Shown piece after piece: positions 42,829 to 46,309 of a DNA stretch of 60,629 nucleotides. The translations under genes were made by a program, and so were the position numbers. This DNA is from Arenicellales bacterium. Lineage in GTDB: Bacteria > Pseudomonadota > Gammaproteobacteria > Arenicellales > JAANXG01. A model generated the notes under the pieces. That model had not been told where the DNA came from. It saw only the letters and a list, made by a program, of their open reading frames with translations, and ran no database searches. Each line of letters opens with the position of its first letter. The first letter of the stretch is position 1. The stretch lies in NCBI GenBank assembly GCA_030066885.1, contig JASJAT010000051.1, positions 1 through 60,629 of the forward strand. The letters are read 5' to 3'.

Positions 42829-43248
42829 ATGAATGTCTCTTCACCCCCACGGGTAAAATTTTCTAGTTTTGAGTTTGCCCGTTTTCACAAAGGCCGCTGT
42901 AGAGCCAGCGTTGGTCTTGAAAAACCCGATGGTGTTCTCATTGAAGAGACTGTAGAAGCGGTAGCTGCCGCGGAATCTACTTCGGAATTACGCTGCGCGG
43001 CACAGGCGACTTTGGAGGCGCTTGGCAAATCTGTAGGAGACATTTGCACCTTCGAACTACTGGGCGTCAAGGCTATCAAAGCCTTCGACACCACTGTGAT
43101 TATCGTAGCGCTGACCGTGCAACACGACGAACAAGTCCATCGCCTGGTCGGGTCTTATCTAGCTGAAGAGAATCCGGAAAGGGGGGCAGCGCTAGCGGTT
43201 TTAAATGCTACTAACAGGTTTTTAGAGAACCCAGCGTTTCACCGTTAG
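42829..43248 (+). CDS. Hypothetical protein (139 aa).
   Basis: Clean ORF with no competing frame. No family recognised, and no clear SD. Confidence 0.4.
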   Translation: MNVSSPPRVKFSSFEFARFHKGRCRASVGLEKPDGVLIEETVEAVAAAESTSELRCAAQATLEALGKSVGDICTFELLGVKAIKAFDTTVIIVALTVQHDEQVHRLVGSYLAEENPERGAALAVLNATNRFLENPAFHR

Positions 43249-43254
43249 CATCCA

Positions 43255-43434
43255 TTAAGTCTGAGAAGAAGAACGATTCAGCATTCGGTGAGTAGTGTCT
43301 TTGTCCGCACGTCGCTTGCCGACGATGAGAATGACGACCACACATAAGATCGGACCCACTATAACCACATAGAGAATCGGGCCCACAATCCATAGGCCGT
43401 CACCTTGAAAAAAGGCGCTAATAGCTTCAGTCAT
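43255..43434 (-). CDS. Small single-pass membrane protein, paralog A (59 aa; below the ORF-track cutoff).
   Basis: My translation is MTEAISAFFQGDGLWIVGPILYVVIVGPILCVVVILIVGKRRADKDTTHRMLNRSSSQT. GGAG lies upstream of the ATG. It shares the N-terminal motif with the four neighbouring mini-ORFs. Confidence 0.55.
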   Translation of the reverse strand: MTEAISAFFQGDGLWIVGPILYVVIVGPILCVVVILIVGKRRADKDTTHRMLNRSSSQT

Positions 43435-43602
43435 AGCGGTGGCTCCAAGAAAGATGGGTTTGGGTGCCTGCTTATCTATTAAAGCTTAGACCATCAACAT
43501 TAAATCGGACAGCGTGGGGGACACCCGCGAATGAGAGTCTTTGTGTGCCCAACATGGACACGACTATCTCAGCGATAGCGGTGGTGCAGGTAATACGCTG
43601 GA

Positions 43603-43767
43603 CTAAAGTCTTTTTGTCGTGATGCCTTTGGAAAGCCGGCGTTCAGATGTCGCCTGCCGAACTTTATCTTCGTAACGACTTGCGATTAGAGCGACGGCGA
43701 CATAGAAAGCGAATCCCACGATCCAGAGGCCATTGCTTTGAAAGAAATGAGAAACGGGTTCGAGCAT
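43603..43767 (-). CDS. Small single-pass membrane protein, paralog B (54 aa from the internal ATG of the 81-aa track ORF).
   Basis: MLEPVSHFFQSNGLWIVGFAFYVAVALIASRYEDK... matches the paralog A motif FFQxxGLWIVG. No obvious SD. Confidence 0.5.
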   Translation of the reverse strand: MLEPVSHFFQSNGLWIVGFAFYVAVALIASRYEDKVRQATSERRLSKGITTKRL

Positions 43768-43862
43768 GTTGGTCTTTTTATAAAAATCTAAACTTCGTAT
43801 CGGTTCTGAATATTCAACAGTGCCCCAAATGTTGAACACACAAATCAACTGAGTCCATCGAT

Positions 43863-44057
43863 TTACTTTCGTGTTGAGAAAGAATCGAGGTCCTCATAGT
43901 ATTCTGCACATCCATCGTAGTACTCCGATGTGTCGCTATCCCCTTTACCTGTACTTTTCTCTTTAAGCTTGTTTACGATCAACACTACAACCACAAGCAG
44001 AGTGAACACGACCCAAAAAGCGTCGCTTACGAAAAACCCTTTAATCACGTCAAACAT
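43863..44057 (-). CDS. Small single-pass membrane protein, paralog C (64 aa).
   Basis: MFDVIKGFFVSDAFWVVFTLLVVVVLIVNKLKEK..., with an acidic Tyr-rich tail. AGGGGG SD. Confidence 0.55.
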   Translation of the reverse strand: MFDVIKGFFVSDAFWVVFTLLVVVVLIVNKLKEKSTGKGDSDTSEYYDGCAEYYEDLDSFSTRK

Positions 44058-44196
44058 GATAACCCCCTATATTGCCAAAGCCCTCCGCCACCCCGAATGA
44101 CCTGTCCCGGACAAGGGGCTGACGGGCAGCACCAGACGGGGCAGGGGAAGGAACTGAGTAAACTAGGATCGACGCGCCTAGCAACAGGGAAACCGG

Positions 44197-44394
44197 CTAA
44201 CGCGCGTAAGGGCCGAGGGCGTCGAGCACCTCTTCCGCATAGATCCCTAGTTTGTCCCCATGTTCCTCTTTAAGACGCTGCTTTGTCTGCTCAATGCCAA
44301 CTTGCAACCAGGTCTCGAGATCGTCTAGCCGTGTATTCAAAGACCCAGCATCTTCTAAGCCGCTGCTCTGCGTACCTTTTTTCACTTCATACAT
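44197..44394 (-). CDS. Small soluble helical hypothetical protein (65 aa) embedded in the mini-protein array.
   Basis: ORF preceded by a GGGGGG SD and the same 14-nt leader block (ACCTGTGGGGGGTC) as paralog E1. Confidence 0.45.
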   Translation of the reverse strand: MYEVKKGTQSSGLEDAGSLNTRLDDLETWLQVGIEQTKQRLKEEHGDKLGIYAEEVLDALGPYAR

Positions 44395-44472
44395 CTTGAA
44401 TGACCCCCCACAGGTCTAGAATATATCTGTTTACAGTATAGACTATGATCGCTAAGTTGAACGGTGTGGTTT

Positions 44473-44601
44473 TTAGCGTCCCTCTGTCCCGGTAGGGTTT
44501 TTATCTTTGCGCGTGACAGCGAACAAGATTACGATCACGCACAAAACCGATCCCGCCATGACGAAGTACAAAACAGGACCAACTAACCACAGCCCGCTCA
44601 C
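44473..44601 (-). CDS. Small membrane protein, paralog E2 (42 aa from GTG). Possibly N-terminally decayed.
   Basis: (V)SGLWLVGPVLYFVMAGSVLCVIVILFAVTRKDKNPTGTEGR is closest to paralog A. It lacks the MxExIxxFF head, an ATG and an SD. Confidence 0.35.
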   Translation of the reverse strand: MSGLWLVGPVLYFVMAGSVLCVIVILFAVTRKDKNPTGTEGR

Positions 44602-44618
44602 AACTGCAGGCGTGGAGC

Positions 44619-44780
44619 CTATTCCGTACTAAGTAACTCCAGGTCTTCGCGATAAAGCTTCCATTTCGCCAGATGTGTTGCGAGATTATTTACCGCCACG
44701 CTTATCGCGGTTAAAAGGGAAACATAGACCAAAATAAAAAAACCATTGGCCTGCACAAAGGCATGGATTGATTCAAACAT
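44619..44780 (-). CDS. Small single-pass membrane protein, paralog E1 (53 aa; below the ORF-track cutoff).
   Basis: My translation is MFESIHAFVQANGFFILVYVSLLTAISVAVNNLATHLAKWKLYREDLELLSTE. GGGGGG SD. Confidence 0.5.
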   Translation of the reverse strand: MFESIHAFVQANGFFILVYVSLLTAISVAVNNLATHLAKWKLYREDLELLSTE

Positions 44781-44861
44781 CGTATAGACCCCCCACAGGT
44801 ATTACGTGCTTATCTGTTAGTGTAGACCAAAATATGGAGGTTTTTGGGTTTGATTAGTAAA

Positions 44862-44885
44862 GGGGGGCATCGGATTATGCCCCCC
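44862..44885 (-). terminator. Strong GC hairpin between the PilZ gene and the mini-protein array.
   Basis: GGGGGGCAT-CGGATT-ATGCCCCCC. On the minus strand it is followed by TTTACTAAT (short T run). Confidence 0.35.
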
Positions 44886-45103
44886 AGCGTGCAGTGTGCT
44901 AGTTCGGGACAATCATATTACCTCAACTGCCTGATGTTAGGGTGGCATCTCATCAGGTAGTCAAGGCTCCCGACGACTGGTGTCGGAGAAGATCATTAGT
45001 ATTACTTATAGCCAGAGACGATGACGTAAAGGTAATAAATAGTATTTATTATTCATTTACAGTCTTTGTGGTGATAAAGCCTTATGCAAGCGGATATCTT
45101 CGA

Positions 45104-45403
45104 TCAGCTCGAATGTAAAATACGGCATGCGTAACTGAATAAGCCCCAGGATCGATGCTTACCGTAGCGCATCACCTTTGCTTTAATTTTTAAAGGTTCA
45201 TCCATGGTATTGTCGGGTGGCATCGCTATTTCCACTTCTTGATCCATGGCCAGTTTCCGTCTGGTCATAAGATACATCCCCGTGTAGTTTATATTTTCCA
45301 GGTGCGCGTTTTCGTAACAGTCGGTGTCGTCAATATAAAGGTGGACACGAGTACGTAGCTCGCAACGAAGCGTTTGCCGCCGTTCGATTGTTAATTTATC
45401 CAT
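45104..45403 (-). CDS. PilZ domain protein (putative c-di-GMP receptor).
   Basis: RRQTLR (RxxxR) followed ~25 aa later by NINYTGMYL (D/N-x-S-x-x-G-like). ~99 aa from the ATG at 45403. Confidence 0.65.
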   Translation of the reverse strand: MDKLTIERRQTLRCELRTRVHLYIDDTDCYENAHLENINYTGMYLMTRRKLAMDQEVEIAMPPDNTMDEPLKIKAKVMRYGKHRSWGLFSYACRILHSS

Positions 45404-45763
45404 CTCTATGCCCCATTTCTGTGCATAGCGATCATCGTGCTCTCCAACCTCAACGAGACACTCATACCACACCCCCGGGTATTTTTGTCGTAACGTTAAT
45501 CTACCCAGAGATCGTCCCTGCAGTCAACGATTTGCCATGGTGTACGGTTTGATGTAACCGCATCCCAACTTGGCGGTATTTTTTGGTCATAAGATTTATC
45601 GGCTTGAAATCAATACGTTAGACCCTTCGAATGGGGATCCTCATGGTAGGGCAAGAGGTAAACGATTCGTTGATATCCCAGTGAATCGTTGCGCGATTGC
45701 GATCCGCCGTCCTTGTGTTTTACTTGCAATACGCCCAACATAACTGCGTACCCCTGTAATCGA

Positions 45764-45991
45764 ATGATGAGTATTATCAATAGAAGATCTGGTATAGATC
45801 GTCGCCACGGATTCGATCGAAGACGGATCCACGACCTAGCCTATTTTGAGCGAGGTGGTGTTGAGCGACGAAGCGGTAAAGAAAGACGTAAAACACCTGA
45901 ACTGCGGGCAGGGTGGATCCGGGTCAGCCCTTGGAGCAGTGTGAAGCAAGACATTATTTTAGAACCGGAGGAGTTTTTTCCCGTGCCCTAA
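45764..45991 (+). CDS. Arg-rich mini-protein with reiterated (S)GxDRR/ERR motifs (75 aa).
   Basis: MMSIINRRSGIDRRHGFDRRRIHDLAYFERGGVERRSGKERRKTPELRAGW... No family recognised. Divergent from the PilZ gene. Confidence 0.4.
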   Translation: MMSIINRRSGIDRRHGFDRRRIHDLAYFERGGVERRSGKERRKTPELRAGWIRVSPWSSVKQDIILEPEEFFPVP

Positions 45992-46020
45992 CGAGCACCG
46001 GAATGGACCCCGGAAGTATT

Positions 46021-46309
46021 TGGCGCCCTCGGCAGGATTCGAACCTGCGACCTATCGCTTCTTACCACTTTAGCTTTCGCTAGTCATTGCTCGTTCGTGG
46101 TCTGGACTTTACCTTCACCCTAAGCAACGCTATTAGGTGCTGCCCGTCAAGTCTCTACACCTTCCTGCTTATTCAGGCTTGGCTCGGTATTGCCACCGTC
46201 GTTACACGCTGAGGTTTCACCGAATTTGAGCAGATTCACGCAAGAAGTTTCCTTCTTTGTGCCCATTTCAAATAGGAGGCGATTGCTCTATCCCCTGAGC
46301 TACGAGGGC
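46021..46309 (-). tRNA. tRNA-Arg(CCT) gene interrupted by a group I intron. Exons are 46309-46274 and 46060-46021.
   Basis: 5' exon is GCCCTCG-TA-GCTC-AGGGGATA-GAGC-A-ATCGC-CT-CCT. 3' exon is AA-GCGAT-AGGTC-GCAGG-TTCGAAT-CCTGC-CGAGGGC-G-CCA. Joined, they give a perfect 76-nt cloverleaf with all stems Watson-Crick. Confidence 0.85.
46061..46273 (-). ncRNA. Group I intron (IC3-like, tRNA-type), 213 nt, inserted after U36 of the anticodon.
   Basis: P1 places a U-G wobble at the 5' splice site (CCU|AU...AUGGG), and the terminal G precedes the 3' exon. There is a GAAA-capped hairpin AAGAAGGAAACUUCUU. Core strings CAAAUUCGGUGAAACCU, CCGAGCCAAGC, GAAGGUGUAGAGACUUGACGG and AGCGAAAGCU closely match the Azoarcus tRNA-Ile and Anabaena tRNA-Leu introns as I remember them. 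Confidence 0.8.

Follow-up and report, generated by a model that had tools for sequence, protein, structure and literature searches.

What are the six very short open reading frames (ORFs) that lie head-to-tail on the minus strand of contig JASJAT010000051.1 from an Arenicellales bacterium (assembly GCA_030066885.1), and are they genes at all? The stretch of DNA analyzed here, 60,629 nucleotides (nt) in full and hereafter called the window, had been read before from its letters alone, and this original prediction described a tandem array of five paralogous, single-pass membrane peptides with a soluble, helical ORF interleaved among them. All six ORFs were indeed found, spanning 43255-44780, and their division into five membrane-peptide paralogues and one soluble protein was confirmed by BLASTP, by a hidden Markov model (HMM) of the family and by hydrophobicity. 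We consider it almost certain that the ORFs are genuine and that they represent a new small-membrane-protein family; as to their function, features of the sequence lead us to favor membrane-anchored adaptors or regulators rather than toxins, with a probability of roughly 40%.

The paralogy of the five membrane peptides is beyond chance. In BLASTP comparisons, copy1 matched the headless copy with 56% identity (E=6e-13) and copy2 with E=3e-8, while the pairs of copy1 and copy3 and of copy2 and copy3 both gave E=1e-5. A head motif, M-x-(E/D)-x-(I/V)-x-x-F-x-x-x-(D/N)-(G/A), can be aligned in the four copies that have a head. When all six-frame ORFs of the window were searched with the family HMM, furthermore, exactly the five membrane peptides of the array were retrieved and no others, the headless copy being hit with E=2e-4 even though it had been left out of the model. 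A repeat search of the array revealed no nucleotide-level repeats among the paralogues beyond a 14-nt leader motif, and their similarity therefore resides in the protein.

The original prediction had called for a check of the frames in related genomes, and in these the frames are kept. We compared the window with related contigs (names in L, among them contigs of ENA metagenomes and of a metagenome-assembled genome (MAG)) and calculated the ratio of nonsynonymous to synonymous divergence (dN/dS) against the orthologues by the method of Nei and Gojobori. At a synonymous divergence (dS) of 0.5-1.7, dN/dS of the six ORFs was 0.05-0.28, well under 1 (Table 1); substitutions pile up at third codon positions, and up to six contigs preserve the frames unbroken. 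All six ORFs are thus under purifying selection. In L001, a contig of 42 kb that is syntenic with the window, all six are kept in frame and order, with the headless orthologue starting at ATG instead of GTG; three glutamate-synthase-like genes, a tRNA gene, an ORF with RRSG repeats, a PilZ gene and the six small ORFs follow one another in both, and the synteny continues through a convergent gene for a 139-residue protein, a CBS gene and a methyltransferase gene. L003 keeps copy5, the soluble ORF and copies 3, 2 and 1 in this order and has no headless copy, and the downstream part of the array is present in the shorter contigs L002, L004, L005 and L006. The array had been regarded as part of an accessory patch, which is not borne out by this synteny with L001 and by an unremarkable composition and G+C content.

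All five peptides are predicted to be bitopic membrane proteins with the N terminus outside and the C terminus inside. Each has one strongly hydrophobic stretch of 19 residues with a Kyte-Doolittle value of 1.8-3.3; the N-terminal flanks are acidic with 0-1 Lys/Arg, while 3-5 Lys/Arg occur in the first 15 residues past the helix, and the orientation therefore follows from the positive-inside rule. An AlphaFold2 model of copy1, for which the family alignment was the input, is a single continuous helix of residues 2-56, with a mean predicted local distance difference test score of 79.5 and values >90 in the membrane part. The longer helix is common to copy1 and the headless copy, and the IVGPIL duplication of copy1 falls inside it. 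The tails diverge between paralogues, yet each is kept within its own orthologue group; in copy3, the tail motif SEYYDGCAEYYEDLDSFSTRK is invariant in >10 orthologues, while the linker is hypervariable. YEDLDSFST in this tail is similar to YEDFDSLTT, with which distant copy5-like proteins end. Such short, conserved acidic/aromatic tail motifs suggest binding to a partner.

Table 1. Features of the array, its surroundings and related contigs. Coordinates are those of the window unless a contig is named; > and < give the order and relative orientation of genes.
Feature	Location	Strand	dN/dS	Description
copy5	44619-44780	minus	0.21-0.28 (L001, L003 orthologues)	53 residues; single-pass membrane protein; tail ...WKLYREDLELLSTE
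Headless copy	44473-44601	minus	0.095 (L001 orthologue)	42 residues; GTG start; copy1-like membrane peptide without N-terminal head
Soluble ORF	44197-44394	minus	0.05-0.10	65 residues; helical; partner of copy5-type gene
copy3	43863-44057	minus	0.10-0.14	64 residues; single-pass; acidic/aromatic tail SEYYDGCAEYYEDLDSFSTRK
copy2	43603-43767	minus	0.05-0.10	54 residues; single-pass; basic tail; ATG within longer TTG ORF
copy1	43255-43434	minus	0.06-0.13	59 residues; single-pass; longer hydrophobic segment; internal IVGPIL duplication
copy5 box and leader	44781-44828	minus		GGTCTACACT-N19-CCTGTGGGGGGTC-N7-ATG; shared by window, L001 and L003 at 85-100% identity
Soluble-ORF box and leader	44395-44444	minus		AGTCTATACT-N20-CCTGTGGGGGGTC-N8-ATG
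Third promoter-like box	43473-43492	minus		GGTCTAAGCT...AGATA; upstream of copy1
G6/C6 hairpin	44862-44885	minus		perfect, 9 bp; GGGGGGCAU-aauccg-AUGCCCCCC; between PilZ and copy5
GC-rich hairpin element	44075-44155	minus		~80 nt; C-rich 5' arm, G-rich 3' arm; soluble ORF upstream, copy3 downstream
Type B element	L012 7846-7925; L007 612-690; L013 6706-6785; L014 700-779			counterpart after soluble-like gene
Stand-alone PilZ gene	45104-45403	minus	0.037 (against L001)	99 residues from ATG; ORF reaches GTG at 45472
Neighbors (PilZ, 139-residue protein, CBS)			0.03-0.11	
Window-type locus	window, L001			PilZ > copy5 > (headless) > soluble > copy3 > copy2 > copy1
Type A locus	L011 (Ww576)			dodecin > copy2-like > PilZ
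Type B locus	L012 (Ww576), L007/8, L013, L014			copy5-like > soluble-like < 72-residue helical gene, then > PilZ
copy2 orthologue	L011 9552-9716			275 nt upstream of PilZ paralogue
Solo member P0048	L015 8001-8162			53 residues; JAHEKE010000011 (Ww576)
Solo member	L009 945-1124			59 residues; full leader
Antisense gene of type B	L007 744-965; L012 7926-8144; L013 6816-7052; L014 782-1000	minus		72-78 residues; helical
16-nt inverted repeat	43540-43555/43829-43844			88% complementary; brackets copy2
RRSG-repeat ORF	45689-45991	plus		divergent from PilZ; ~75-100 residues
RRSG-repeat ORF, relatives	L001 6533-6811 (minus); L011 18027-18137			
tRNA-Arg(CCU)	46021-46309	minus		exons 46309-46274 and 46060-46021
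tRNA-Arg(CCU), relative	L001 5673 to ~6010	plus		
139-residue protein	42829-43248	plus	~0.03	

In terms of known families, the array peptides matched none in Pfam, NCBIfam, PADLOC or PHROGs. The original prediction had likened the head motif to DUF3149, a family of proteobacterial proteins that are similarly ~50 residues with a short head and one hydrophobic helix; the likeness did not survive a profile test, since hmmscan of the six window peptides and 22 family members gave no match to PF11346 at E<=10, the hits at that level being only sub-threshold noise driven by transmembrane segments. A profile search of 5.8 billion proteins returned only orthologues of copies 1, 3 and 5, all from ENA metagenomes, where copy1 has eight orthologue clusters. 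An exhaustive HMM search of 1.84 billion representative proteins gave 8 clusters, to which a broadened profile added two proteins. More distant orthologues of copy5 were reached by the protein HMM in L012, L007, L013 and L014 and as P0024/P0025, and an orthologue of copy2 with 52% identity was found in the MAG "Gammaproteobacteria bacterium Ww576" (GCA_024638505.1). Neither copy2 nor the headless copy seems to be represented in the protein databases searched, both having been passed over by gene callers. Neither the DNA pattern of the leader nor the PilZ subfamily was found in JGI metagenome contigs, and a literature search on the sample and MAG identifiers found nothing. A phage origin was considered and rejected, as the leader pattern is absent from IMG/VR and PHROGs gave no match; no defense signal was seen in PADLOC either. 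The family is therefore previously undescribed, restricted to one lineage and very narrowly distributed, and its cis-elements are also undescribed, while a tandem array of paralogous, small single-pass membrane proteins is a kind of object already known.

The array lies beside a PilZ gene, as had been noted before, and over its residues 7-95 this protein scored 24.1 bits with PF07238 (E=4.7e-5), for which the gathering threshold is 22.5. As read from the sequence, its RxxxR motif is present as RRQTLR. A search against PDB sequences gave no match, and among 185,579 species genomes the subfamily was found in that of Ww576 alone, with two loci. Both PilZ paralogues of this MAG have a member of the peptide family alongside. 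Overall, the ~100-residue PilZ adjoins family members in three differently arranged types of locus (window-type, type A and type B in Table 1); in L003-L006, the array is present and the contigs end before PilZ would be reached. The type B loci adjoin pdxJ-recO-era-rnc-lepB-lepA, and in them a soluble-like gene of 69-100 residues directly follows the copy5-like gene. The soluble ORF of the window is homologous to the C-terminal half of this type B protein (BLASTP E=2e-6) and has no Pfam match. We also noticed that the conserved helical protein of type B, whose antisense gene separates PilZ from the soluble-like gene, has no significant Pfam match and no counterpart in the window.

Dedicated upstream signals accompany several of the genes. 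RGTCTAnRCT, followed after ~17-20 nt by CCTGTGGGGGGTC and after 5-8 nt by ATG, precedes copy5 and the soluble ORF, and the form common to several members, including those of distant genomes, is GTCTAnnCT-N15-24-CCTGTGGGGGGTC-N5-8-ATG; the same leader stands before the copy5-like genes of L012, L007, L013 and L014 and in L009. Copy1 retains the box only, and in L011 the G-rich leader of the copy2-like gene comes without the GTCTA box in its exact form. Contrary to the earlier claim that each membrane peptide carries its own Shine-Dalgarno (SD) sequence and leader, copy2 and the headless copy, the latter starting 17 nt past the stop codon of copy5, are without a recognizable SD sequence. The 60 kb contain GTCTANNCT-N3-6-AGATA at three sites, each of them inside the array, compared with an expectation of 0.02. 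We discarded the idea that the GTCTA box is of the sigma-E type, because its spacing to any AAC motif, read from the sequence, does not fit.

The G6/C6 hairpin upstream of copy5 is conserved together with ~20 nt upstream of it between the window and L001, and it may be a terminator of PilZ or part of an upstream control region of copy5. The window has fewer G6/C6 runs (14) than the ~26 that would be expected, and 5 of the 14 are within the 1.7-kb array. The GGGGGGCAU/AUGCCCCCC hairpin sits 68 nt upstream of the G6 SD sequence of copy5; judging from these sequences, read-through from PilZ could allow the hairpin to engage in alternative anti-SD/SD pairing. A 16-nt inverted repeat bracketing copy2 was also examined and set aside, as it is at chance level for 2.7 kb; it is not conserved in L001, L003, L004 or L006.

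Across six contigs, the ~80-nt hairpin element of the array keeps 97-100% identity, although their dS is 0.5-1.1. A known riboswitch or small RNA (sRNA) was rejected as its identity: no Rfam family was matched at the gathering score, nor at E<=10 across 43000-46300, its folding energy is not better than that of shuffles, and there is no covariation. With no excess of folding and no compensatory changes, any structural role of the element is hypothetical. An integron, miniature inverted-repeat transposable element or other mobile cassette was likewise rejected, given that there is no repeated attC-like element, that the window has a single copy of the invariant element and that the gene order is kept in relatives. 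In type B loci, the counterpart following the soluble-like gene keeps the outer stems invariant but differs in its apical 30 nt, and this apex is complementary to the leader of the copy5-like gene, whose start is ~500 nt upstream of the element. We found 12 contiguous base pairs over the SD sequence (ACCUGUGGGGGG:UCCCCCGCAGGU) and 6 further pairs in GAUGUU, a segment that takes in the start codon; the duplex energies lie between -33 and -39 kcal/mol, with z between -2.7 and -4.7, and were matched by 0-6 of 500 dinucleotide shuffles. By analogy, the complementarity resembles a hok-like fold-back lock or a 3'-untranslated-region-derived sRNA; pairing over the SD sequence and AUG recalls the fbi/tac elements of hok and the 5'-3' fold-back lock of aapA1.

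Conserved order, purifying selection and long conserved acidic tail motifs are among the reasons why we favor adaptors or regulators, alongside the positive-inside, single-helix pattern, the invariant tail motif of copy3 with its relative in distant copy5-like proteins, the PilZ adjacency in three types of locus, the soluble-like gene directly after the copy5-like gene in type B, the conserved leader and hairpin element, and the lack of phage or defense signals. Gene duplication in this gammaproteobacterial lineage has expanded the family, whose members would be expressed from up to three similar promoter/leader units: namely, copy5 (with the headless copy), the soluble ORF with copy3 (and copy2), and copy1. 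Each peptide would place a short, acidic amphipathic head outside, one transmembrane helix in the membrane and its charged tail on the cytoplasmic side. Head and helix, being shared, would serve for membrane insertion or for contact with a common partner in the membrane; soluble partners would be bound by the tails, which have diverged from one another but are conserved individually, notably by the one with the YEDLDSFST-type acidic motif. We infer that the 65-residue helical protein and the neighboring stand-alone PilZ protein are candidates for such partners, that the system would thereby depend on signaling by cyclic diguanylate (c-di-GMP), and that post-transcriptional control would come from the invariant hairpin element together with the G-rich leader. 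Enterobacteria use bitopic regulators of 30-65 residues, such as MgrB, AcrZ, MgtS, SafA and BcsF, which act by binding a larger partner; BcsF, in particular, is a tiny single-pass anchor of the c-di-GMP sensor BcsE and sets a precedent for tethering. The array peptides have no homology to these proteins, however, and they are five paralogues whose head motif is common to them. A review (PMC11250160) describes PilZ proteins of a single domain as adaptors that act in trans, and with this known role the adaptor reading would fit. The PilZ protein of the window resembles stand-alone adaptors such as MapZ/PA4608 and HapZ in having ~100 residues, a single domain and RxxxR, but it differs from them in belonging to a very narrow subfamily, having no PDB match and carrying an altered second c-di-GMP motif.

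Several observations weigh against an adaptor function linked to PilZ. The second motif of PilZ is NINYTG in place of (D/N)xSxxG, with Asn in the position of Ser and the canonical spacing kept. Nowhere do PilZ and the peptides form an obvious operon: gaps of ~275-325 nt or an antisense gene lie between them. Family members also occur solo, without a nearby PilZ, in unrelated contexts: one in L015 (with flanks of 8 kb) between DUF3617 and sulfotransferase genes, and the other in the GC-richer contig L009 between the gene for a retropepsin-like protease and djlA. All known loci come from a few related uncultured gammaproteobacteria, and the neighborhood may partly reflect the common descent of this narrow set. 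The architecture of the peptides is, moreover, equally compatible with pore-forming toxins. The solo members, the missing operon link and the narrow range of hosts would also be expected of ordinary, lineage-specific small membrane proteins, for example membrane stabilizers induced by stress or accessory subunits of some membrane complex, for which adjacency to PilZ is inherited synteny. This explanation is possible, if somewhat unlikely; the adjacency outlasts rearrangement of order and orientation and even a duplication of PilZ within one genome, and a leader and a hairpin that are dedicated and highly conserved speak for specific regulation and against a bulk structural role.

Are the peptides instead type I toxins that depolarize the membrane and whose translation is restrained by RNA structure or an RNA antitoxin, the array being a multi-copy locus like ldr, hok, ibs/sib or zor/orz? 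The original prediction had drawn this analogy for ldr, ibs/sib and zor/orz. Their size of ~60 residues or less, the single hydrophobic helix, the charged C-terminal tail and the tandem paralogues with conserved 5' leaders of their own are all as in type I loci (hok/sok, ldr/rdl, ibs/sib, zor/orz, tisB/istR and aapA/isoA), and the gene content varies in that the headless copy is missing from L003. The type B element pairing with the SD sequence and start codon of the copy5-like gene also speaks for such a toxin, whereas in the window all duplexes between leaders and the element gave z>0, locus-wide scans for complementarity to the leaders were no better than shuffled controls, and no antisense promoter/terminator pair stands out. 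Homology is lacking as well: none of the toxin families of Pfam and NCBIfam (such as Hok, Ldr, Ibs, TisB, ShoB, Zor, Fst and TxpA) was matched at E<=10. Orthologues in fixed order under purifying selection and conserved acidic tails of at least 30 residues also speak against a toxin, and the co-conservation of a soluble protein and PilZ is unusual for type I toxins. Of the analogy, therefore, the architecture and the masking of SD and AUG in type B loci remain, while the homology and, in the window, the RNA partner do not, and we regard the toxin explanation as unlikely. A further reading, namely a peptide system whose translation is gated by the G-rich leader and the invariant 3' hairpin, the latter masking the SD sequence and start codon in relatives, and whose tails recruit PilZ to form a c-di-GMP-responsive membrane switch or PilZ-linked, toxin-like effectors, would have no described counterpart and seems to us quite improbable. 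Spurious ORFs or a non-coding DNA repeat, a possibility the original prediction had itself raised, can be dismissed: three of the ORFs are <60 residues and went uncalled by gene finders in some contigs, but the dN/dS values with intact frames, the resemblance of the paralogues in protein and not in nucleotides save for the 14-nt leader, and the retrieval of distant orthologues by the protein HMM rule it out.

Annotation of small membrane proteins suffers from a systematic gap, to which the array adds a clean, selection-supported example of a new family. Its function is made testable by the conserved tail motifs, the dedicated leader and RNA-like element and the recurrent adjacency to PilZ. If the link of the peptides as adaptors to PilZ is true, a membrane-tethering mode would be added to c-di-GMP adaptor signaling; if the fold-back control in relatives is true, hok-like mRNA locking would extend to a new peptide family.

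Some features around the array also deserve mention. The tRNA-Arg(CCU) gene, immediately downstream of an 847-residue glutamate-synthase-like ORF and kept in L001, contains a 213-nt group I intron in the anticodon loop. The intron matched Rfam Intron_gpI over the full length with 47.5 bits (E=3e-10), just short of the gathering score, which is 50; the interrupted gene escapes ARAGORN, which does call the spliced 76-mer as tRNA-Arg(cct). The same tRNA has a group I intron in Agrobacterium, and such an intron seems unusual in a gammaproteobacterium. The RRSG-repeat ORF, with RRSGxDRR/ERRSGxERR repeats (...INRRSGIDRRHGFDRRRIHDLAYFERGGVERRSGKERRK...), has no Pfam match, is 84% identical in L001 and has a weak relative in L011. 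The 139-residue protein on the other side of the array has no match in Pfam, PADLOC or PHROGs and is 93-96% identical in relatives; its gene is convergent with copy1, and only 6 nt separate the two stop codons, so that the transcripts must overlap.

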